DNA of 63,815 bases, the filler included, from Neolecta irregularis DAH-3 (taxonomy: Eukaryota): the NCBI GenBank assembly GCA_001929475.1. It is 7 parts of 7 records of this genome, joined end to end, with 100 filler letters (N's around TTAATTAATTAA, not from the genome) between each part and the next. Parts side by side here need not be neighbours in the genome. Positions count along the whole stretch, not along the records: positions 42,959 to 52,709 come from LXFE01003212.1; 6 more parts are not named here. One strand, written 5' to 3'. Made by a program: the position numbers and the translations under genes. Shown one piece after another: positions 22,801-53,986 of the stretch; positions within the stretch are counted from its first letter, which is position 1; each line of letters begins with the position of its first letter. The notes under the pieces are model-generated. The model saw only the letters and a program-made list of their open reading frames with translations, did not search any database and had not been told where the DNA came from.

Positions 22801-25785
22801 AGCCGAGAAACTCTACAAACAACAAATCATCCAACCTCGTGCAAATCTGAAATTTTCATTTCCTAAAATTTCGCGCCCTTTGGATCATCTAGTGGGAATG
22901 ATCGATCTAGAGAAAGTTGTTGTTGTTGTTGGTTTCTCTGAAGTCGGTCCCTGGGGAAACTCGCGAACTCGATGGGAAATGGAAGCTTATGGAGAGTTTT
23001 CTCTTGAAGGAGCTATTGAAATGGCCTGGATCATGGGATTAATCAAAAATCACGACGGCAGATTGAAGAACGGGCAAATCTACTCGGGGTGGGTTGATAC
23101 GAAAACGGGCGAACCAGTCCAAGATGCAGAAATCAAGTCTCGGTATGAGAAACATATCCTAGAACATTCCGGTATACGTTTAATTGGTAATATTTATATT
23201 ACTATCTTGTTCTGACCATTTTAGAAGCCGAACTTTTCGGTGGCTATGATCCAAAGCGAAAAGGTCTCCTCCAGGAAGTCGTCATCAATCATGACCTTGA
23301 ACCATTTGAAACGTCATCGGATGCTGCAGCAGAATTCAGGCTCAAACATGGTGATAAAGTTGAGATATTTGAGATCAAAGAAACCGGCGAATGGACTGTC
23401 CAGTTCAAGAAAGGTGCATCTTTGCTCGTTCCAAAAGCTGTTCGGTTCGATCGCTTTGTTGCTGGACAGATCCCAACCGGTTGGGATGCTCGCCGATATG
23501 GTGTCCCTGAGGACATCATCTCTCAAGTAGATCCGGTCACTTTATACGTGTTGGTGGCGACCGTTGAAGCCCTAGTTTCTTCAGGGATCACAGACCCATA
23601 CGAACTCTACCAATACGTCGGTATTTCAGAAGTTGGGAATACCATAGGTTCTGGAGTGGGAGGAATGAATGCTCTCCGAGGAATGTACAAATACCGATGG
23701 GCGGACAAATCTATTCAAAAGGATATCCTTCAAGAGTCATTCGTCAATACAATGTGCGCTCTTCCTTTTCCCCATAACTGAATATATAGTGCTGCTTGGG
23801 TTAACATGCTCCTCCTTTCATCGGCAGGGCCCATCAAGACGCCAGTAGGTGCTTGCGCCACAGCTGTCGAATCCATTGATATTGGTGTTGAGACCATCCA
23901 AAGTGGAAAGGCCAGGGTTGTTATTGCAGGCGGTGTTGATGATTTCCAAGAGGAAGGTTCGTACGAATTTGCCAATATGAAAGCTACCAGCAATTCCCAA
24001 GAGGAATTCTCTCAAGGCCGCTCTCCGAGGGAAATGTCTCGACCAACCACGACCACCCGAAACGGCTTTGTGGAAGCTCATGGCTCTGGGATTCACGTTC
24101 TCATGCAAGCAAAACTCGCTCTCCAAATGGGAGTGCCTATTTACGCCGTCATCGCCATGTCTTCCACTGCTACAGACAAGGCTGGACGATCCGTTCCGGG
24201 TATCTCTTTGAGCAAGAAAAATGCTAATGTGCCAGCTCCTGGTCAAGGTATCTTGACCACCGCTCGAGAACAATCAAGCAAATTCCCATCGCCTCTTCTT
24301 GACATCAATTATCGAAGACGACAACTCGATCTCAGGAAGAAGCAGATTAAGGCTTGGACAGAGTCCGAGCTTATGTATATGAATTCTGAGGTGGCTGCCA
24401 TCAAGTCCTCTGGTCCGAATTTTGACCGCGAGGAATTTCTCCTTGAGCGAGCACAGCATGTCGAAGATGAAGCAAACAGGCAAACCCGAGATGCCCTCAA
24501 TATTTGGGGGAATGAATTCTGGGTCAAAGATTCTCGTATAGCTCCTCTTCGGGGCTCTTTGGCTGTTTGGGGACTTACCATTGACGATATTAACGTTGCT
24601 TCCTGTCATGGAACCTCAACTGTTGCAAACGACAAGAACGAACCTCAGACGATCGCAAAAATGCTCCGCCACCTCGGTCGCGGTAAGGGAAACGCATTGT
24701 TGGGAGTGTTCCAAAAATATCTAACTGCTCACCCTAAAGCACCTGCCGCTGCTTGGATGATGAATGGTGCTATACAAATTCTAAACTCGGGGATAGTTCC
24801 TGGAAACAGAAACGCTGATAGTATTCCGAGCTTTTTGACTAGATTATCTGACTCAATTAGACATTGATCGAGCTCTAGAACAATATCCTGAATTTGTCTT
24901 TCCTAGTCGCAGTATTCAAACAGATGGAATCAAAGTAGAGATCCCCCAGTCTTTGTTCATCTAATTTTCCAGGCGGTTTCTATTACATCATTCGGATTTG
25001 GTCAGGTCGGCGGTCAAATAATCGTGATCAATAAAGACTATCTCTTCGCTGCTATTGACGAACATGATTTCAAGGTGTACAAGACAAAGATGGAAGATCG
25101 TTACAAGAAAGCTTATAGATATTACCATACTTCGCTCGCTGAAAACAACATGTTCGTTGCAAAGGAGGGGCCTCCACATACAATTGAACAAGAAAGCGAA
25201 GTCTATCTTAATCCCCGGGCTCGAGTGAATTTAAACAAGAACACTGGTTCATACCGCTACCCTTCCGACTTTCAGAAGCGTTCCGAACCAAGCGCTAAAA
25301 AAACTACAGAGATGCTTTCTGCACTAGTCGACTCATCTGGCCAGAATGTCGGTATTGATGTTGAATCAATTTCCACGTTCAATATCGACAACGAAACTTT
25401 CATAAAGCGTAACTTTACCGATATCGAGCAACACTATTGTAAAAGCGCAGCGTCTCCTCAGTCCAGCTTTTGCGGAACGTGGAGTGCCAAAGAAGGCACC
25501 AGATTCGTAATATTTCGTTTGCTGACATTATAGCGGTGTTTAAAAGCCTCGGAGTCAAGAGTCAAGGTGGCGGCGCTAGCCTCAAAGATATCGAGATTAT
25601 ACGGGATAGCAATGGAGTTCCAGTTGTTCGATTGCATAGAGGTGTTGCACAGAAAGCTACTGCTGCTGGTATTACAAATGTTGAAGTGAGCATTTCACAC
25701 GATGAGTTCCAAAGCGTAGCAGTTGGTGAGTATATTATGTTATGAGATTCGCTAATTGTAAGCCTTTGCTCAAAAACGAAATTGA
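19861..25785 (+). CDS. FAS2: Fatty acid synthase subunit alpha (ACP-KR-KS-PPT), 12 exons
   Basis: ELAHTLL, GGKSTLQNE (ACP serine), TGCGAGSIG (KR), TPVGACATA and SCHGTST (KS), VGIDVE...WSAKEAVFKSLG (PPT). Confidence 0.98.
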
Positions 25786-41613: not shown

Positions 41614-42376
<763 letters not shown>

Positions 42377-42958
42377 GATGTATTTGGTGAAAGATGTGAT
42401 CGGGATGGGAAGTTGGCTGTCGGAAACGCAGTCCACAAGATTTTCAACGAAGCTAATTTAAGTTAATTAGCGGTCTTTCCTACCACTCTCAATGTCTCAA
42501 TCCTGACGCAAAGATTCCCCAGATGGAGAGTTTGAGAATTTCCAGATCTCCAAAATGCCCCCTGATATATATTCGCTATCTACGTGATACGTATACATAT
42601 GAGGAGTTCTCTCGAGAAACTTGCACCAAAGCCAAGAAAGAAATGCACGGCGAAAGTAAATAAGCACGAAATATAAATTGCGGATATTTTAAAAATAAAG
42701 CGACTTGATCTGCGACACTTTTAAACATGAGATATCGTTTTTAGCCCAACGGCATTATCATACCAAACCTATCGATGTTTTCTACAGTCATGACCAGACT
42801 TGCTAAGTAAACAAGTCCAACTCTCCCCGCTGGATACTCTCCGGTGGGCGGGTGGGCGNNNNNNNNNNNNNNNNNNNNNNNNNNNNNNNNNNNNNNNNNN
42901 NNTTAATTAATTAANNNNNNNNNNNNNNNNNNNNNNNNNNNNNNNNNNNNNNNNNNNN

Positions 42959-45863
42959 AAAAGCAAGTGTAGGGAGTTCAGCCAGCTCGGGTTCTGGCGA
43001 ACCGGAACGGACTCGCTTTGACTCAGGCAATTGCAATTCATGACAGGTGGATGTACTCCTTCTTCTCCTTCTTGCGGAGTATGAATCAGCATTATCAGCA
43101 TCAAGACCAGTTTGTTCTCCGTCGCATGTTGACATTTTATCTGTGGCGAGTGATTTCGAGATAGACTTTATCTTATGTTTCACTCGTTCTTTGCGTCTGG
43201 AAACTAATTTGTCCATATATGTGCGAGAGAAGATTTTAATCCTCTTCTTCTTCTCTTCGGAAATCTCTTTTAGTGACTTGATTTGGTGATCAGGACGCAT
43301 CTCTTTCTGCACGAGAATCCCAACGATCTACATTATTAGGTGGTCTAATCAAGATTTATCGTATCTCTTTGGCCCTCTTTTTGAGATCTTCTTTCTCGAA
43401 TTGCTCGCTATATTTTGCAATAACGTTCGGCACAAATTTGGCAAACTACCGGTGAATGATGAAACCTATGGAAAAAGGAGCTACCAGTTTGGTCAATTGC
43501 TTCTCCAGGATCTCAGGATCCTTGTTCTTTCTTTTCGACTTCTCAGCCTCTGTGTTGTCAGACTTCTTTTCCTTCTTTTCTTTGTCTTTCTTCGACTTTT
43601 GCTCCTTTCGAGGTTTCTGCTTCTCCATAGCCTCCTCCTCGACCTTTGCTAGAGCTGCCTTCGCAGCCAACTGCTTGTTCGCTGCATCAATAATCTTTTG
43701 GAGATCCATCTTCTCCGTCTTGTGCGCTTCTTCTTGGCTTTTAAACTGGATTCGAGGAACGTAAAATGTAGGCTGGTTTTGTAGGGGCCCAGCCCATCGT
43801 TGACGATTAATAAATGTAATTTTAGATGTCGAAGAAAGTTTTGCCTCGTCTTGAGCATCAACTGATTCGGCAGTGTCCGTACTTTCTTGCGTATCCACGA
43901 TTTCACGCTTCTATATGAGAAGATAGCTTACCATCAACATACCCGTTTCTTTGGAATTCGATATGCCATTTCTAGACTACTCCATTCTTGCAGCAGAGTT
44001 TGAGCCATTGTCTTGACATTTTCGTTCTCTCTTTCTGTCAATTCTCTGACAATATCTTCAATCTTGGAGCTCGAAATTTTGTTCCTCGTCAGTCGAGGCC
44101 ATTTTAAAAGGACTTCCAAAATCTAAAAATGAGATCTTCTTGGCATATACGTGTTACCGTTGCAGGTATCACGTCATCTTCTTTCCAATCACCAAGGACA
44201 GTTCCTAGGATTTGATACCCATGCATCTTCATAACACGTCTATGTACACCTTGGTCATTACTCATATAAATAGAATCAGCTCAGACTGAAGGTCAAAGAC
44301 ATACTTGAAGGCGAAGGAGCAGTTTATTGATCATCCATTGCTCTTTACATTGCATCAGTGTACTCATAATCTTTGTAACTCCTTTCTCGTCGGCTTCCCG
44401 GGGTTGAATATTAATGTATTCATCATCTTCGCCAGATCTCTTGGACTTTCGTCTTTTCTTAACTGTGGTGGTCTCCCAATCCCATTCATCGTCTTCCTCG
44501 AGTCCGAGGGCTAGTTGTTAGAGTAGAGATGCAAACCTTAACATACCTGCTCGAACATTATCTGGCATTTTAGATTTGGCCTCCGTTTGGGTTTTCCCCC
44601 CAATAAAACCAATACAATCTGGTTCGCCGCAATAACAAGGTTGCGCCTGGGCGCTGAGATGTAAGTTTATACTAGTTCACATGTCCATACCCATATCGAT
44701 CAACATTGTAATCAAAGGTCAGTTCCTCTCCAGCCTGAATATTGCGTTTTGCAAAAATTCCCATGCGCAGTTTTGTTCCCACAACCCATTTATCAACATA
44801 GCAGTTTGGCGAACAAGAATGATTGATGAAACGCCCTAGGCCACCACGCCGAGTAGCATCTATAAATTCGCCTTTTTGTAACATCATGAAATAGAAATGT
44901 TTGATTCCTTCCTCGTCGTACCGAATCATCCTCCGTCGAAATTCCTTGTCGTGAATGACATCGCCGACATACTCATAAATGAATAGCCCCTTGGGAAGAT
45001 CCGAGTTCGTTCTGAGGCCATGGCCTTTCAGTTGGGTTTTAATAACGTCTACATCAGCGTACTCGCCCTTTTGAAAACGCTGGTTTTGACATCCTTCGCC
45101 ACAGTTGCAGTCATCTTCAGTACATTCCATCGATGTCATACGATTGATACAATCTGAGTCTTCACCGCAAGAGAGATTACGTTCACCATCTGAATCGTCA
45201 GAATGATTGTTAAAAACATTTTACCCCATTCTGGGAGGCAATCACAACCCATACTTTCGTGCTGATTTGTCTCGCCCATCGATTTGTTGATGTAATTGCA
45301 TTTTGTGATCTCCATGAAAGTTTGCGAAGCTTCGACTTTAGCTGAAGGCAGATCCTTGAAAAGTTGGGAAGGAGCTTGGATAAGATTCTTTTTTGAATAT
45401 TGGGGTTCCTAAGTCATGTTTAGTGAAGTCTCCTGATAGTGTCTGAAACCTTGTCGCTTTCTGAATTTTCGCAAGTCGGTGAAGTCGAGCCTGGACTATC
45501 GGGAACAGATTCACGGCCAGAGAGAGTAGTCGGCAGCTGTTCTTCAATGGCTAGGGGTTCCAACTTTACATCCGCACTTGAAGGAATCGTACATTCCAGA
45601 AGCCCGAAATCCATCGCCTCCATTTTTTGACAATTGCCGCGAATGTCATTACTCTCAGATACAACAGAACAGTGATCAGAAGGCTTTTGCAGATTCAAGG
45701 GATCTAGATTGCCCTTTTCCAGCCCGAAAGCGGCTTCTTGCTTGATATTCTTCATATTTTCAAATGCTATTCCATTCTCTGGTGGGCGATTTATGGGATC
45801 ATCCAGGTGGTCTGGGGCGTTGTTTGTGATTTTACCAGTATCGAGAGTATCCTGTTTGGACAT
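42959..45863 (-). CDS. SET2: Histone H3K36 methyltransferase Set2; 3' end runs into a gap
   Basis: AWS, SET ([23 protein letters not shown]), post-SET, the [15 protein letters not shown] region and an SRI domain. Confidence 0.95.
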
Positions 45864-46338
45864 CTGGATTACTGACAGGAACTATGTTGGCCTGTGTATA
45901 CGGAGCTTTGGTGGAGAGATGTCGAATTATAGTTGGTCGGGTGCAGACTCGCAGTGGAGCTCGGAACTTCAAACGCAAAAGTATCTTTCTAGAAAGGAGA
46001 TGTAGATATTTTTCAAAGGAACATTCGAATATGTACTTATGTGGGTTCTGCTCGAGATTTGATACGATATTGAAGACAACAAACGGTTTTTTGCAGTCTT
46101 TCCCGCCCTGATCTAACATCAGCGAAATTCAAAGCAAAAATGCTGAATGTTACCATGAACAGTGTGCACAATATTCTTCTGAAATACAAAATAAAAGAAG
46201 AATACCGCGGAAAGTAATATCCGAGAATATTGCTATCGCTAGCTTGTGGTGGATGAATGAACGTCAACTTTCGATTTTCGATTCCACAAACTACATCCAG
46301 ATCAAATTTCGCCCTCTCGCATATTCCAAAAATTTAAA

Positions 46339-47404
46339 ATGGGACATTCGCATAGTCATGAACACAGCCATCGTCATTCGCATAAAGCACATACAACTTC
46401 TGCAGAGGGCTTGAGGTGCAACCTCTCCTTCAATTATACAAATTGCTCATTTCAGGGTCACCACTATTGGACTTGTTTTGAATATTCTGTTGACATTGAT
46501 CAAGGGAATTGGAGGATATATTCTTTCTTCAGCGTCCTTGATTGCAGATGCCGGTCATTCGTTGTCAGGTACGCAGTTGACCCAATCTAATTCGCTGAGC
46601 TTGAGACCTTCTGGGGGATTCAATCACTATTTTCACTCTCTCCTTTTCTAGTCGTTCGCCGTCGAATAACTTCCCTAACGGCTTTGGTAGAATCGAAACC
46701 ATTGGTTCTTTAGGTGTTAGTCTTATGCTTAGTATTTACCTCAAATCTTCATATGCAGTGACTGACTCAGACTAGCTCTTGGTGGTGTGACAATATCCTG
46801 GTCAGCACTTTTCCCTCATTCAAATAGACATGGTCATCATGATCATCACGATCCTGATTTTTCATCACCTTTTGCTGCTTCTCTAGCATTGCTCGGTGTT
46901 TTATCAAAAGTTTATCTCTATGTGATCACAACGAAAGTTGCAAAAGCATCGAAATCACCAGTTCTTCTCGCGAACGCTTATCATCATTTAAGTGACGCAA
47001 TGAGCAGTGTCGTTGCATCTCTGGCGATTGTACTCGGATGGGTGTTGGGTGTAGAATGGGGAGATTCTGTTGGCGGTGCTATAGTTGGCGTCATGATCAT
47101 TAAAAGCGGCCTCGAGATCGGATGGCCAGCCTTACTTGAACTCTGTGGAAAGGGTGTTGACGAAGAAACATTAAATGAGATAAAAGATGCCATTAAGGTC
47201 AAAAATGCAAGCATTCGGAAAATCAGCGCTGAACGGAGTGGATCCAGTATGATTGTCAATGTGGATCTGAGAGTCGATGGAGAAACCGCAATATCCCAAG
47301 TTGGCGAGATTCGGGAGACTATTCGGAAACAGATTTCAGATCAGGTTGAAAATTTGCTGATTTGTCGTATTGAAACCTATGAAGATGTGAAGAAGGACAT
47401 TTAA
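46339..47404 (+). CDS. Cation diffusion facilitator (Mmt1/Mmt2-like metal transporter), 4 exons
   Basis: His-rich start MGHSHSH, LIADAGHSLSDL, FPNGFGRIET, LLANAYHHLSD. Confidence 0.88.
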
Positions 47405-48489
47405 ATTTTCAAGGTTTGTTTTTTGGACAGAGTTTAAGCAGATTTATCTGTCTGCATTGGAGATTATTAGCGCTGGAGTTTCCAAATTCATCAAGATCTG
47501 ATTAATGCGTTTCAAAAATTTATACCTGATCTCCGTCTCTGTTTTAGGCTCTGCGGGACTCCACAATTTAAGAGGTAGAAGGACTATTGATACACAATTG
47601 TTTTCCAATACGTAGTAAGAGATAGCCGGCTAGAAGAATCACAGTGATAGTGTCAATGAGTTATGTGGCTTGATAATATTTATTGAGGATGATAATCAAA
47701 CAATCAAGAAGTCTTCTTAGTCTCTGCTGAATTAAGACGTATAACATGCCAGTTAAGCGGATTCCTGTTCAAATAGGGCCACGGTAGAGTTGTAAGCTAT
47801 AACGATTAATATCGGGGGTTAAGGCGAATTTCATGCCAATAACGAAAGAAATGTACCGCCAAGAAAGATATACGTAGTCACCCAGACATCCCGAAGAGCA
47901 AAACCAACAAGAAAGCCAATGATCTGGTAATTAAGTAGTTCAAACATGAGAAAGGTGGATACAGCAGAGCCGATTAGACCGACGTGTATGATGATCCAAG
48001 CAAGTTTCTGACCTCTGAAGTCCTGTCATATTAGATGGTTTTCTGGATGCAACAGATATACGATAGATCCTTCGCAAATATTTCGAATAGCATCCATGAT
48101 GATGTCTCACGGTGATGATGAAATCCGGCGGTTGGTGACCAAGATGGAAACTTTGACTAATCCCTACAAGGAAGAACATCGCAAATAATTATTTCATTAT
48201 ACAAAAAAGACTCAAGAATATTGTAAGACATTTTTTCTCCCAGTTGTATGTACATAGGTGTTTTTTTCATGTAAATGATCTGTAGTGAAGCAAGAACTAG
48301 TTCAAAAACTGTAATAGAAATATGGAAGATATATAAGTTGTATAAGATGCATATGCTCTGAGACTTTCAACCGACAAAGCTCGATGGAATAGAGGGATTT
48401 TAAAGAAAATAAAAAGGGAAGAACATACAGGGATCATGGAAGTATCTTGGATTCGCTTTATTCCGGGTTTATTGGCAATCTGCTTAAAC

Positions 48490-51400
48490 TCATACGTTAT
48501 ACATCACATGTAGTTTCTGACAAATTTCAGGAGAAAGTGTGCCCATAAAGTTATCCCAATTGTCGAGCATGCCTTTATATCCAACAAGGATCTTTTTAAA
48601 TCAACCAAAAAAGAAGCGGGAGGGAACACCATACCCCTTTAAACATGTCATTCAATTCCGTACTGGGCGAGTCCCATGTTACCACTGCCATCACAAAGTC
48701 GTGAAGATTCCGTGAAAGTCCACCAGGGTTTTGACCAATGACAGTACAAATCCCTCTAAAGGCCGAGTCTTTTTCTTCATCATCTCGTACGGCTTGTAGA
48801 GTCTTGAACCAGGCGCCTACAAACGATTCTAACTGAGGAGCAACAGCAGATGGGCAAGCTAGACCGAGACGGCCAATCGTTACAGCTGCGTTCTCAAGAA
48901 GAGTTGGCGGTTTTGTATCAGCTTGCAATAACGTAACGAGCCTTTGAAGAAGAGGGCCAATGTACGGCTCCATATCGCCCTGCATTTGAAGGGCAATTTC
49001 TCCGGCCGCCCAAATCGCGTTATTGCATACACTGACCGAGTCTGGCCGCGGTGAAATGTGAGGAATTGTATTTGTCATGATTTGTGGGAGATAGGGTTTG
49101 ACATATTTGAAATGCGAAATTGCAAGATCCCCAACTAGGGCAAATGCCGACTGCTTCACATCGTGGACTGGATCCTGGAACATCAATATTGTAGCCACAA
49201 ATGAGGGACATACGACTAGACATAGTGAGAGAAGATCCATCAGGGGCGGTTGCGTCGACGAAATCAAGTGATCGATATGTTCACCTAATCCCTGGACAAG
49301 ACCGCTTACAAGATCCAAAGCGGTAGTAAGGAAATCCTTGTCTGGTTCATCAAGCGAAGGATTCGACTGACATGCATGCGATTGTTCGAGAGTGCGATGA
49401 ATGATTTGTATGCACCGACTATACACTGGCAGAGCAAACGGGGCAAATCCTTCGCCCAGGGCAACAGTAATAGATGACAAACACTAGAAGAATCAGTGGC
49501 AAGGTTGAACTATTTTTGATACCTCGAGCAACGGGAACAATCCACGATCATCATCTGGCATGCTTGCCCATTTTTGATTTAAAGGCGGCATTAGAACCTC
49601 GATATACTCTGGGCGATTCAAAGCAGGACCAACCATGTCGGCGAGAGTTTGAATAGTATCATAAAGAATAAAGAGATTCTTACTCTGATATTTCTGAAAC
49701 GCCTCGACAAGTTTGGTGAGAATCGGGTGGAGATACGGGATGAGCGTTGTTGAAGCTTGTTCTTCGAGATTAGCGAATGCACTACATCCTGCATCTTGAA
49801 CGCGTTTGTTGTTATCAAGACACATTCTAAGAAGCTGGGTATGTTAAACAAGGGAACGATAAGAGGAATATACTCCTTCCATAAGTGGAAGAAAGAACTT
49901 GTTCTTTTCATCCTCGGTTTGCAGATATGCGGCCCAACGTGAATATCGACCCAACGTCCAGCAGGTAATTTGACGAACAAGAGGCTAGATAATCAGGTTT
50001 TATATGTCAACAAGATGCTACCTTTGGATCTTTTAGTAGACTAAGAAGGTATGGATAAAGTTCGGGCAAATGAGGCGTGATTCCTTCCATGCAACCCTCT
50101 GCAATTGCTCCTAGTGCAAGGACCCCAGCTTCTCTGACTTTCCAATCCGAACTAAAGAGATTCTCCCGGAGATAAGGCAAGCTGATCTCTAAAAGTTGCT
50201 GACTGAATACTGTGGCCAATACATCTAGGGCAGCAGCAGAGCATTTTCGTAAATTCCATTCTGCAAAGACATCGTCATCGTCATCGTCGTAATCGTCGTA
50301 ATCGTCATCACCATCTTCATCAGTTGCATCAATGCTTTGTTGAGAGTCTCCGTTGCTGTTGGCATGATCTGCTCCCCGGGGTTTGAGAGAAACATGGTGT
50401 GGTTTGATATCTTTCTCGTCATCTTCGAGGTGGGCATCATCTTCGTCTCCGCCGAGTGTCAGGATATCCATTTCGTTATAGATCATGCCCTTTAGGAGCA
50501 TCGGGACGACTTTTGGTAAAAATGGCTCAAGAGAGGGTCTTAGTTCCGTTTGTTCGGCTATTGACAACCAAAACTCGCACGCTTCCAGGGCGACATCTTC
50601 ATCGGCGTCTTGAGTAGAATAAAGCATGTATTCGACTATGCTGTTCATCGATGGAGCAATCTTGTCCGGCCGAGCATCTAATAGCATAACGAGTGCGTGA
50701 CAGACATTTTTGCGAACCTCGGTATCAGAATCAGTTGCGAGTTTGAATATAGCGGCCATAAAACTATCGATATTGACCATGAGGGACTGGGATTTTCGTG
50801 GAATAAACTGATTGATGCAGGATAAAGCGTGAGCTCGCATCCGTGGGTTTGGCGATTCGCAAAGAGTGATAAACTTGGAGATCATAAAATTTAAAGGTCG
50901 TTGGCCATTGTATTCTGTATCGAGCTCTTTAGTTGAATCTTCGCAGATTTTACTCAAAGCGCTAAAAGCACCCTATTTAAAGTCAAAAAAAAATTTGCGG
51001 ATACATACTTCACCAGCGCTTGGAGTAGGACTATCGAGCATCACCATAAGTCTAGGTAAACATTCTGGCCACCCAAGCAATCCGACTTTGAGCATAAGAG
51101 TAGTAACCACGCTGCCAGAGATGGCTCTAACGAGGTTTTGCTCATCTTGAAGACCAACAAGGATAGCGTTTTTCACGTATGCGAGACTCGATGGATTGTC
51201 TCCGACTGTAGGTCCATTTATGCGAAAATTATTCTTCAAGTAGATACCAGCATTTGATCGAACAGTGACTTCTGCATCTTTTGCATAGGTGAGGATATAC
51301 GCGAGGTAGTTATTAAACTCGGGCCAAATTTTTGCTTCCTCCAAGTGCTATCAAATCTTTGTCAGTTGATATAATAAAAAATCTGGATCAGGGGATCGAC

Positions 51401-51506
51401 ATACACCAATGGCCACTCTAGACAGCTGATGGTTTTCAGACAGCGAAGTTTGCAGAAGCTGTGAAAGCTGCGAAAGAGGTTGCGGCTGAGGAGACCACGC
51501 AGACAT
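48490..51506 (-). CDS. KAP104: Transportin / karyopherin beta-2 (8 exons)
   Basis: ALEACEFW, acidic H8 loop, [53 protein letters not shown]. Confidence 0.96.
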
Positions 51507-51913
51507 AATGTTGATTTGAGATATATTTTAGAGGGTACCGACGATCTGGGCGGCCGATAAAATTCGAATGGAGATTACAGGTAACGGCGCTGCCGGTATC
51601 GAAAGAGCAGGCGTAATTGGAGTACTAGTCGATTTAATGGAGGGTTGAATTACTCGCACAGGGAACGAAGTGACTGGTGGTGACAGACTGGATCATGGTT
51701 TTCAACAAAACATTTCATTAATGATGCGCATCAAACACTGTTTGAAAGGAGTATTCTTAGGTAAAGTGCGGCAAATTCATGTAATATCGTATACAAGCAG
51801 CAAAAGCGGGTAAACAACTCCATGCGAACTCCAGCCCCAGCACAAGAAGATGAATCAGGAAAATAGATAAACGCAGGAAATAACAGGAAAAAAAGGAAAG
51901 AGGGACGAAAGAC

Positions 51914-52483
51914 TCAGTCTTGCATGACGATTTCTCGTGGTTGTAACCAGCTAACCCACGTCAGCAGTGCCATTTTTAGCGCAAAAGCGTCATACACCGG
52001 CTCTTCCCATTCGTCCGCAGATGGATCCACATATCTGCTTGATCCAGCAAGACGCTCTTCTTCGCCATCGTCAGTATCATCGCGGGATCGTTTAGTTCCA
52101 TTGTTAGACTGGGCCGCGGTGGCTATTGGAGCAGGTCTGGCATGTAGAGCACAATTCATTGCTGGAAGTGAAGGATAGATCGACTGGTTCTTGGTCTTGT
52201 AGCCTTCTTTGACCGCTATTTACTGTGTGTTAATACTTTCTATACCTCAGGATAGGCGGCAGAAACCTTTACGGCTGTATGAATTAGAAACTATTCCATA
52301 GAAAAATAGCAGCACGTACACTCTCATGCCTAGATCGAATAGAGTTGCCTGTATCTGGGGCTCTATTTTGGGTCGTGTTATGTGACTTGTGTCTTGTTTA
52401 CGCACAACTGCGCCAGCAGTTCGCTTTGCAGTCGTATTTGATTTGACGATTTTGTTTCCCTTGTCCATGATAGAGGATGTCAT
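51914..52483 (-). CDS. Ribonucleotide reductase inhibitor family protein (Spd1/Dif1-like)
   Basis: Spliced IQATLFDLGMRVRKAVKEGYKTK matches the family motif VGMRVRKSV.xGYK; needs an 8-nt microexon. Confidence 0.75.
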
Positions 52484-52809
52484 AGTAATCCGAGTTTATA
52501 GTCGATAAAAAGGGAAAAGGCAACTTAGAATTGTAATCCCTCCCCAGCTTTTGCCATCATCCAATGGGTACAGACACATATATATTCAATTTAGTTCTAT
52601 TTCTGCTCTATAAACTCGTTTGAGTAGATATATATATTGACCCAGAAGCCTTTTCAGATGCGACGATATCCTGATAATTCTGTATTTCCTCCTAGGCAAC
52701 ACGTAAGCTNNNNNNNNNNNNNNNNNNNNNNNNNNNNNNNNNNNNNNNNNNNNTTAATTAATTAANNNNNNNNNNNNNNNNNNNNNNNNNNNNNNNNNNN
52801 NNNNNNNNN

Positions 52810-53986
52810 AACCCTCCGCCTGCCGCGCGCGCGCTCACGGCAGCTCCCGCAGAGACCTCGCCGCACACGCGCTGCTCGACGAGCGGCTGGTGCCCGTGCG
52901 CCTCGAGCTCGACAGCGACAAGCACAAGCTGCGCGACACCTTCACGTGGAACTCGGAGGAGAAGCTGATCAAGCCCGAGTACTTTGCCCACGTCTACTGC
53001 GCCGACCACGCCATCCCCGCCGCCGTCTTCGCCGCCCAGATCGCAAAGTCGCTCGCCGAGCAGCTCGCAGACTTCCACCCGCACCACTACGACCCGCGCA
53101 CCGTCGCCCCGCAGCCCGCCGCCCGCCCCTGGTCCGTCTACAAGGACGACGATCTGCGCATCACCATAAAGGTGCGCCGCCTGCCGTCGCCGCTAATGCC
53201 CAGCTCGACATCACCATCGGCAACTACAACCTGCTCGACGCCTTCGAGTGGGACATCAACTGCCCCGCAAACATCCCAGAGCTCTTCGCCGCTCAGCTCG
53301 CCGCGGACCTCTGCCTCTGCGGCGAGTTCGTCACCGCCATCGCCCACCAGATCCGCGAACAGTGCCAGCAGTACACAAAGACCCTCGTCCTGCTCGACCA
53401 CAAGCCCGGCGACCCCATCCAGGACGACGAGGTCCGCCAGAATATCGTCCCCACCCTCACCTCCACCCTGCGCACAGACACCTGGAACTACACCCCCACA
53501 GTCTCAAAACTCTCCCCCGAGGAAATAGAAAAACAGGACCAGGTCCGCGACCGCGAAACTCGCCGCAAGAGAAGGCAGCTGCGCGCGGGCAGGCGCGGCG
53601 TCGCCTTGCCAGACTTTAACGAAATCTTCAAAACCCATCGCACCCCCTGCCACCACTCGGTCCTGCCCCCCGGCGAAATCCCCCTCCTCAAACACACCAC
53701 CGAAGACGACGACGACGAAGACGAAGACATCGAAGACGTCTCCGACGACGACGACGACGACATCCTCCCCAGACAGCACATCCCCGGCGTCTCCCCCGTC
53801 TTCACCCACTCGCGACTCTCAAAAATAGTAAAGCTGAAGCTGCCAAAGCCAAAGGTGCCCTCTTTTCATCCAATGCTGCAACGCCAGCAGCAACAATACC
53901 GTCCCTATCAATTCCCGCAAAATTACCCTTTTCGTCCACACCACAATGTAGAGCCGTATTACCCTCCTTATAGACCCCCCTATTAG
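52810..53986 (+). CDS. SNF5: SWI/SNF subunit Snf5; 5' end lost in a gap
   Basis: LVPVRLELD..LRDTFTWN and IKLDITIG..DAFEWDIN..PELFA..LCGEFVTAIAHQIREQ repeats. Confidence 0.88.

Follow-up and report, generated by a model that had tools for sequence, protein, structure and literature searches.

The SET2 gene (H3K36 methyltransferase) of Neolecta irregularis DAH-3 carries, within the region coding for the SRI (Set2-Rpb1-interacting) domain, a 37-nt intron with the terminal dinucleotides AT-AG (43328..43364, minus strand). We consider it highly probable that this is a genuine U2-type intron in which the first base is A instead of G, that it is cut out exactly at the ancestral bonds, and that it likely originated by a G-to-A change. 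The A is present in genomic DNA, exactly 37 nt are removed in a cDNA-like contig, and the domain continues over the junction. The window, meaning the whole stretch of DNA that was analysed, consists of 63,815 nt (seven joined parts of assembly GCA_001929475.1, filler included), and all positions refer to it; SET2 lies at the start of the part taken from LXFE01003212.1 (42,959 to 52,709). An AT-AG intron in the SRI domain had been proposed in an earlier sequence-only reading, and this proposal is borne out by a 37-letter skip in the cDNA-like contig X2 and by the A at +1 in both the window and the genomic contig X1.

SET2 starts with an ATG at 45863 on the minus strand and comprises ten exons and nine introns of 35-41 nt (42959..45863), seven of them GT-AG, its 3' end being absent at the contig break. 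The exon preceding the AT-AG intron has 27 codons (43365..43445, minus strand), is bounded by X2 joints, and codes for profile positions 4-33 of the SRI domain (Pfam PF08236), its initial portion. The last visible exon (42959..43327, minus strand) contributes profile positions 35-78 and a C-terminal tail, is ended by the contig end (a run of N and the TTAATTAATTAA linker), and is 75% identical to P0001, a related transcript-derived protein. The gene agrees with the composition of a Set2 with SRI domain (AWS, SET and post-SET region together with a C-terminal SRI), the SRI being located on the exons that flank the intron; as in Set2/SETD2, these two exons together give a full SRI match (PF08236). 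The SET exon is 100% identical to a named N. irregularis protein, the public Set2 model P0122. This model is 732 aa long and ends in ...KRAKEIR, inside the 37-nt intron, and a Pfam search of it gave matches to AWS, SET and Med26 but none to SRI. Because the public gene model missed the intron, the deposited Set2 wrongly lacks the RNA polymerase II-binding domain. The Set2 protein itself is ordinary, the oddity being the interruption of the gene and the truncation of the public model.

On the minus strand the junction reads ...GCC AAA GAG / ATACGATAAATCTTGATTAGACCACCTAATAATGTAG / ATC GTT GGG..., with the AT donor at 43363..43364 (A at 43364 is intron +1, without difference in X1; hexamer ATACGA). 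The branch point and acceptor had been judged clear, and indeed the putative branch site CTAAT (43335..43339, minus strand; branch A at 43336, 8 nt from the intron 3' end) and the acceptor TAG (43328..43330, minus strand) resemble those of the local introns. The other 19 tabulated introns of the window are 35-41 nt long once the FAS2 donor is corrected, and in 12 of these 19 the A of a [CT]T[AG]A[CT] motif lies 7-10 nt from the 3' end. Of the introns audited outside SET2, 16 were GT-AG and one, in FAS2, is probably GC-AG. The length, the CTAAT motif and the TAG acceptor of SET2 intron 9 fit this local pattern beyond what chance would give, and only +1 deviates. When compared with U2-type introns in general, it is exactly absent from mature RNA with in-frame ligation of the exons (X2; SRI and homologue collinearity) and has, at the sequence level, a YAG acceptor and, a short way before it, a CTRAY-like branch motif; T at +2 and A at +3 also fit, but the 5' end is neither GT nor GC. 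It is not a U2-type AT-AC intron either, as its 3' end is AG. That no GT donor lies nearby was likewise confirmed: there is none between 43424 and the intron, and the nearest in-frame GT donors, at 43424 and 43433, would create introns of 97 and 106 nt with a loss of 20 to 23 residues. Retention leads to an in-frame TAA (43356..43358, minus strand), as had been predicted, and the resulting AKE-I-R-stop is how P0122 ends; the expected truncation of the SRI domain is illustrated by the same intron-retaining model, which has no SRI match.

The genomic evidence consists of an unbranched X1 contig of 815 nt (43066..43880, depth 412), which has A at 43364 on the minus strand like the window. It differs from the window only at 43076 and 43268, and is therefore not merely the same consensus. 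Where sites vary, near 43881 and 43911, X1 forms bubbles (records 3 to 6); there is none at 43364. The depths of the two bubble arms, about 550 nt from 43364, were 223 and 227.5, and since X1 is unbranched at 43364 despite this nearby bubble, both X1 haplotypes appear to carry A. X2 is represented on the stretch by one record, a 4,650-nt contig with a depth of 145, from which all nine SET2 introns (9/9) are missing. This material is recorded as 'DNA?', and its cDNA nature is deduced from the absence of these nine introns. At intron 9, 37 letters are skipped, placed at 43326..43362 with 4 letters of freedom, which includes 43328..43364. Because a 4-nt AGAT repeat is present at both intron ends, the joint between exons 9 and 10 has five possible placements (AC-AT, TA-GA, AT-AG, GA-TA and AG-GT). 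None of these five is GT-AG, and AT-AG is the sole one with an AG acceptor, so this placement was picked by parsimony and is not itself displayed by the reads. X2 shares the X1 alleles at 43076 and 43268 and differs from X1 at 44861 (T>G), while 43025 falls outside the X1 coverage. All four exonic differences among the window, X1 and X2 (4/4) are synonymous and in the third position, as expected for a gene under purifying selection. Of note, intron letters are invisible in X2, which therefore bears only indirectly on the +1 genotype of its source material. The spliced form exists and is the assembled path, and because the ligated exons are the assembled form, both splicing steps evidently occur. 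Only assembled contigs were used, and contigs drop rare variants, so the lack of an intron-retaining record in X2 is no evidence for efficient splicing.

Removal of the intron joins SRI profile positions 4-33 (exon 9) to 35-78 (exon 10) without a gap, and the spliced product, KRAKE|IVGIL, is the same as in P0001. The latter, which has 253 aa, comes from a contig of 1,015 nt and shows 75% identity, is uninterrupted through the junction and matches the SRI profile from 2 to 78 (E = 9.8e-17). In an alignment of 14 rows (the model and 13 others), 12 of the 13 rows have no gap at E|I, and the thirteenth is P0122, which stops there. AKE is kept in P0001 and K-E in most homologues. Thus, the AT donor restores the protein as anticipated, with a gapless SRI profile and AKE kept as in P0001 and homologues. 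A junction audit based on homology only arrived at the same 37-nt solution, with zero GT-AG candidates. This audit also yields false junctions at indels and poorly conserved stretches (43946/43712; 21-nt 'introns'), and the count is limited to those whose flanks are conserved. When a metagenome was scanned with the SRI alignment, 113 pattern stretches matched and 0 were confirmed; a relative's genomic orthologue of the intron was not obtained.

SET2 contains another odd intron, of 39 nt and with GT-AT ends (44266..44304, minus strand). X2 skips exactly 39 letters here with zero letters of freedom, so that its placement is unambiguous, and an X1 contig that spans it (43912-44764) shows 0 differences from the window. 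The product LQ|MSNDQG is collinear with homologues, whereas in the public model VC replaces MSNDQG and there is a 5-residue gap. The distance from the putative branch A is 10 nt to the AT in use and 15 nt to the next AG, which would fit a ruler-like choice of the 3' site. The FAS2 model seemingly contains a similar forced GT donor, which cuts out part of a conserved motif. In view of these errors in the SET2 and FAS2 models, non-GT-AG introns are probably under-called genome-wide. A scan of ORF pairs for junctions without a canonical solution gave 150 of 239 pairs without GT-AG, mostly spurious frames, and a stricter version gave some GT-AG solution for 45 of 45 pairs, including the known GT-AT junction; the latter is insensitive, and both were dropped as a census. 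The available part of the supplementary file of the genome paper (PMC5309816) has no intron, splicing or Set2 content, and that of PMC7072748 has no Neolecta entry.

Could the A at 43364 be an assembly error or a polymorphism, with a canonical GT allele as the source of the spliced RNA? X2 departs from X1 (44861 T>G) and may represent another haplotype or individual whose intron letters are invisible, and the window and X1 differ at two sites in 815 nt. Yet both have A, X1 is unbranched at this position, X2 shares the X1 alleles at 43076 and 43268, and the explanation must hold independently for the GT-AT intron, where X1 has 0 differences. We therefore regard it as unlikely, and the suggestion that the base is really G fails on the A in the window and in an X1 contig that has two synonymous differences. 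Editing of the +1 A to inosine, by which AU becomes IU and is read as GU, would make the intron canonical at the RNA level. In some filamentous ascomycetes, mRNAs are known to undergo A-to-I editing during the sexual stage. The RNA of the genome paper came from fruiting bodies (PMC5309816), and there is a human precedent of three AT-AG sites with consistent A>G mismatches (PMC4176328). Nevertheless, the region is no more structured than shuffled controls (z = 0.30; an equally good fold in 124 of 200 shuffles), and the GT-AT companion would be left unexplained as its odd base is U. The base before the +1 A is G, which is disfavoured for fungal editing, and we know of no A-to-I editing in Taphrinomycotina, making this a very unlikely explanation. 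Excision of the IRE1 or tRNA-endonuclease type was rejected: there is no predicted structure, a normal branch motif and acceptor are present, and the cut sites are unlike CNG|CNG loops.

The AGAT repeat on both sides of the skipped segment, with its 4 letters of placement freedom, raises the question whether the joint is an artefact of reverse-transcriptase template switching or of mis-assembly across this direct repeat, short direct repeats with non-canonical ends being typical of reverse-transcriptase artefacts. This is highly improbable, as the spliced path is the sole X2 record at a depth of 145, a retained intron brings a stop after two codons whereas its removal makes a conserved domain whole with no indel, the related organism's protein P0001 has the same junction, the branch motif and acceptor are typical, and there is no repeat at the GT-AT joint of this contig. 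The GC dinucleotide 9 nt upstream of the AT donor (43372..43373, minus strand) was another proposed alternative. Its use would produce a 46-nt GC-AG intron and delete AKE with the frame kept; GC-AG is the commonest non-canonical class, and a probable example is found in FAS2 in the window. However, 37 letters are skipped and not 46, which refutes it as the major form, AKE is present in P0001 and K-E in most homologues, and GCCAAA is a poor donor; the site is unused, and we give this option next to no credence. The same very low probability applies to a minor-spliceosome (U12-type) intron. U12-type introns have the consensus motifs RTATCCTT and TCCTTAAC, the latter 10-20 nt from the 3' end. Compared by eye with these motifs, the 5' end ATACGATAA and the pre-acceptor sequence ...GACCACCTAATAATGTAG match only the first three bases of the U12 5' motif, so that neither the extended 5' splice site nor the branch consensus is present, and 37 nt is typical of Neolecta's ordinary introns. 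Among 66 non-canonical introns of the U12 type from five model species, 20 are AT-AG and 7 are GT-AT (PMC1557818), but a survey of more than 3,000 genomes reports no convincing minor introns in Ascomycota (bioRxiv 10.1101/2022.09.24.509304).

The preferred reading, a U2-type intron with A at +1, most likely starts from an ordinary GT-AG intron in which a G-to-A transition at +1 generated AT-AG. Removal at the ancestral bonds would still join the end of exon 9 (...AAA GAG) to the start of exon 10 (ATC GTT...) and give one continuous SRI domain. Neolecta introns appear to be ultrashort (35-41 nt), with 5' splice sites that seem weakly conserved beyond GT and CTRAY about 7-10 nt from the 3' end. 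From this combination it would follow that introns are probably defined by their length, branch site and acceptor, so that losing G+1 may leave the splice position unchanged. With A(+1)/G(-1) as the terminal pair, exon ligation should be slower; a regulatory role of inefficient splicing had been put forward as speculation in the earlier reading. Where the intron is kept, the stop two codons in would result in a protein without SRI profile positions 35-78.

Several known systems can be compared. In Ganoderma lingzhi, 21 AT-AG (0.0228%) and 18 GT-AT (0.0195%) introns are tabulated beside 89,855 GT-AG introns (PMC11590231); introns that are neither GT-AG nor GC-AG amount to about 0.6% by this table. 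These have the same terminal dinucleotides, also in a fungus, and were found only when transcripts overrode GT-AG-only prediction, but this basidiomycete has longer introns, whereas in Neolecta (Taphrinomycotina), with introns of 35-41 nt, two such introns occur in one nine-intron gene. The AU-introns of Aspergillus telomerase RNA and the G1A mutants of S. pombe, yeast and human share with intron 9 the A at +1 of a U2-type intron; there, however, either the second or the first step is blocked by the A, which serves to end the reaction after 5' cleavage, with spliced product barely detectable (PMC4299874). With an A at +1, the S. pombe TER1 intron was blocked at the first step and a tif212 intron was inhibited in its splicing; when placed in S. 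pombe, the Aspergillus niger AUAAGU intron went no further than the first step (PMC4299874). Since A at +1 blocks or inhibits splicing in these other fungi, productive splicing of SET2 is unexpected and may be inefficient. Animal and plant U12-type AT-AG and GT-AT introns tolerate the same end pairs, where a 5' A can go with every 3' base and a 5' G with either G or T at the 3' end (PMC4176328; PMC1557818), but have a long U12 consensus and use the minor spliceosome, whereas the SET2 intron lacks the motifs and its lineage is reported to lack the machinery. In the edited human AT-AG sites, too, an AG acceptor is paired with a genomic AT donor (PMC4176328). Those sites require double-stranded RNA for ADAR-type editing, whereas the SET2 region has no predicted structure.

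A rare U2-type AT-AG class is already known, and the SET2 case is a modest addition to it unless the genome-wide rate is high. More tentatively, and with a rather low probability, the major spliceosome of Neolecta may, given introns of just 35-41 nt, define them mainly by the spacing between branch site and 3' end, with a relaxed requirement for G(+1)/G(-1), and SET2 may be dosage-tuned by slow ligation. If this were true, productive splicing would extend to A(+1)/G and G(+1)/U introns, on which the spliceosomes of S. pombe, budding yeast and human stall, and SET2, having one of each, could be dosage-tuned through slow exon ligation, with unspliced SET2 RNA giving a Set2 without the RNA polymerase II-binding SRI domain. 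The SET2 introns are also of mechanistic interest: in the related S. pombe, each context examined had its splicing blocked or inhibited by an A at +1. A natural AT-AG intron that is ligated, with a GT-AT neighbour in the same conserved gene, is a ready substrate for work on how strict the matching of the first and last nucleotides has to be in a spliceosome that deals with ultrashort introns. With the truncated public model, comparisons of early-diverging ascomycete chromatin machinery would wrongly deny Neolecta the docking of Set2 on RNA polymerase II.

The AT-AG intron of SET2 (43364..43328, minus strand), which lies inside the SRI-coding region, was read directly and is 37 nt long. The minus-strand text is exactly as the sequence-only reading had it, with GCC AAA GAG followed by ATACGATAA...CCTAATAATGTAG and then ATC GTT, and read-through gives I-R-TAA, the stop on retention that had been claimed. 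No GT donor is close by, the nearest in-frame upstream ones being at 43424 and 43433, and a GC donor at 43373 would give a 46-nt intron and delete AKE. A branch-like CTAAT motif, whose A is placed 8 nt before the 3' end, is followed by TAG, and among 20 tabulated introns, itself included, the AT-AG intron deviates from the local pattern at +1 only. These 20 comprise nine SET2 introns, taken from joints in the sequencing run X2, and eleven of FAS2, obtained by exact mapping of its public model P0002. Their lengths are 35-41 nt, except for one 50-nt FAS2 intron, their 5' splice sites are weak past GT (e.g. GTTTCA, GTAGCT, GTGCAC), and most have CTRAY branch-like motifs 7-10 nt from the 3' end.

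X2, one of two runs from one study that are available as contigs, is recorded as 'DNA?' and contains for 42960-46000 a single record, a 4,650-nt contig with a depth of 145. This contig skips nine SET2 segments of 35-41 letters, and because all nine SET2 introns are missing we call X2 cDNA-like. When shifted within their stated placement freedom, seven of the nine joints are GT-AG. At the AT-AG site 37 letters are skipped with 4 letters of freedom, and among the five possible placements (AC-AT, TA-GA, AT-AG, GA-TA and AG-GT) none is GT-AG and AT-AG alone keeps an AG acceptor. With 37 rather than 46 letters skipped, the GC-donor intron from 43373 is ruled out as the assembled form, and so falls the use of this upstream donor, which had been put forward as a possible refutation. 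The companion GT-AT intron (44304..44266, minus strand, 39 nt) has zero placement freedom in X2; counting from the A in a CTGAT motif, the AT used is 10 nt away, and the AG that comes 5 nt later is passed over. Intron 7 (43908-43942, minus strand) ends ...CATATAGAAG, a NAGNAG-type tandem acceptor at 43908-43914, of which X2 uses the distal AG (43908) and not the TAG 3 nt upstream; judging from its sequence, this acceptor could add one lysine. The X2 contig runs 259 letters past 42960 and reaches 1,684 letters upstream of 46000, well past a plausible SET2 5' UTR. In this upstream part it is probably merged with transcripts from the adjacent plus-strand gene, a cation-efflux-like ORF at 46766-47404.

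The contigs of a second run, X1, run through the SET2 introns on 42960-46000, and X1 therefore behaves as genomic DNA. An 815-nt X1 contig (43066-43880, depth 412) matches the window at every position but 43076 and 43268, and thus has the same A at 43364. The other suggested refutation, that this base is really G, does not hold, since both the window and the genomic contig have A. X1 forks into short alternative records at variable sites and is unbranched at 43364. Going by the ends of its alternative 60-nt records, there is a rare variant near 43881 (depth 10.9 against 414) and, near 43911, one that splits about 50/50 (223 and 227.5); this second site coincides with the proximal AG in intron 7's tandem acceptor, TAGAAG. 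The exonic differences of the window with X1 and X2, at 43025, 43076, 43268 and 44861 (two between X1 and the window, two further in X2), are all four synonymous third-position changes, so that the window and X1 look like distinct natural haplotypes sharing the A. The differences thus look like natural variation and not assembly error, and their pattern suggests purifying selection on SET2.

The SET-domain exon is 100% identical to P0122, the public Set2 model of 732 aa (histone-lysine N-methyltransferase, H3 lysine-36 specific). P0122 ends in ...KRAKEIR, i.e. it is translated into the AT-AG intron, and its Pfam matches are AWS, SET and Med26 without any SRI match, in agreement with the prediction that retention costs this domain. 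In the spliced model, the 27-codon exon 43365-43445 carries Pfam SRI profile positions 4-33 and the next exon, which starts at 43327, continues with 35-78, so the join is exact to the residue, and the AT donor indeed restores a continuous protein. With the last SET2 exon as query, one longer relative was found, P0001 (253 aa, from a 1,015-nt contig, 75% identical), which is uninterrupted across the position matching the E|I junction. We aligned the spliced model, P0001 and P0122 with 12 Set2 homologues, chosen among 120 listed matches because their sequences contain an SRI or are closely related (the other 107 were left out). The E|I junction is gap-free in 12 of 13 rows, the exception being P0122, which stops there. 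When junctions were searched by homology only, the same 37-nt solution came up and no candidate at this junction was GT-AG. At the GT-AT junction, to which P0001 does not extend, VC and a gap of five residues stand in P0122 in place of MSNDQG, and the 12 homologue rows align collinearly with LQ|MSNDQG, the only departure being an insertion of a single residue. Both odd introns are mis-modelled in the public annotation. The 3' end of SET2 is removed by a break at 42741-42958, which like that at ~52758-52810 consists of N runs around the six-frame stop linker TTAATTAATTAA, the window being concatenated contigs.

Outside SET2, the FAS2 exon is 100% identical to P0002 (fatty acid synthase subunit alpha), which at the public 50-nt GT-AG intron (25484-25533, plus strand) has a four-residue gap compared to 6/6 homologues. 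A 38-nt GC-AG intron at 25496-25533 (plus strand) brings back the conserved stretch WSAKEAVFK; on this homology evidence the 50-nt model is probably wrong and the 38-nt intron the true one. In a transportin/importin-beta-like gene identified by homology (47500-52760, minus strand), audited between its ends using full-length homologues (7 of 150 listed), all five intron-requiring junctions have GT-AG solutions, of 57, 36, 37, 39 and 39 nt; for the first of these, two alternatives with one mismatch each come almost as close. In the uS7 (RPS5) gene, a 39-nt GT-AG solution (41907..41869) joins the last exon, whose start corresponds to residue 129 in the chain of a solved uS7, to the exon before it.

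The U12 consensus motifs are absent from the AT-AG intron. The sequence points to handling by the major spliceosome, and a pan-eukaryotic survey describes Ascomycota as without convincing minor introns (bioRxiv 10.1101/2022.09.24.509304). Spliceosomes tolerate the first/last pairs A...G and G...T, as shown for U12-type introns (PMC1557818, Table 2; PMC4176328), but for U2-type introns the expectation for A at +1 is the opposite. As reported in one study, G1A in yeast and human stops splicing at its second step, +1A in S. pombe blocks the first step in the TER1 intron and inhibits splicing of the tif212 intron, and an A. niger AUAAGU intron in S. pombe yields almost only cleaved first-step product (PMC4299874). 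Against this background it is mildly surprising that Neolecta ligates the SET2 exons. A-to-I editing of the +1 A would make the intron canonical in RNA, and such editing at AT-AG sites is documented in human (PMC4176328), yet predicted RNA structure is absent at this intron (z = 0.30) and the companion GT-AT intron would be left unexplained, which makes editing highly improbable. Either the context of the AT-AG intron tolerates A at +1, or its splicing is inefficient, two options that contigs cannot separate.

The SET2 introns comprise seven GT-AG, one GT-AT and one AT-AG (n = 9), versus 16 GT-AG and one probable GC-AG in the window sample outside SET2 (n = 17). This sample is too small to tell a special SET2 from a permissive genome (2/9 versus 0/17, Fisher test, p ~0.11). 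Introns outside the GT-AG and GC-AG classes make up ~0.59% of a fungal annotation curated with transcripts (PMC11590231, from Table 1), and by our arithmetic two such introns among nine would at this rate have a probability of ~1.3e-3. The pair stands out, although one such pair is not impossible where a genome has introns in the many thousands. For N. irregularis, 4,202 introns were reported in 1,211 orthologues (PMC7940399). The genome paper describes sequencing of fruiting-body DNA and RNA and an assembly of 14.5 Mb (N50 16 kb, 5,546 genes), and its main text nowhere mentions introns, splicing, RNA-seq or transcriptome (PMC5309816). In the literature covered, the matches listed for Neolecta introns and splicing include no account of non-canonical Neolecta introns or of this AT-AG intron.

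The AT-AG intron of SET2 is confirmed as real and rare, probably of U2 type, and paired with a GT-AT intron, and the sequence-only interpretation is supported; SET2 is correctly expressed and the public model is wrong. Where the intron is not removed, Set2 would lack SRI profile positions 35-78, a loss that might serve regulation, as the sequence-only reading speculated. The intron adds to an already known rare kind, and if the transcriptome shows such termini to be widely tolerated in Neolecta, the finding would be of greater interest.
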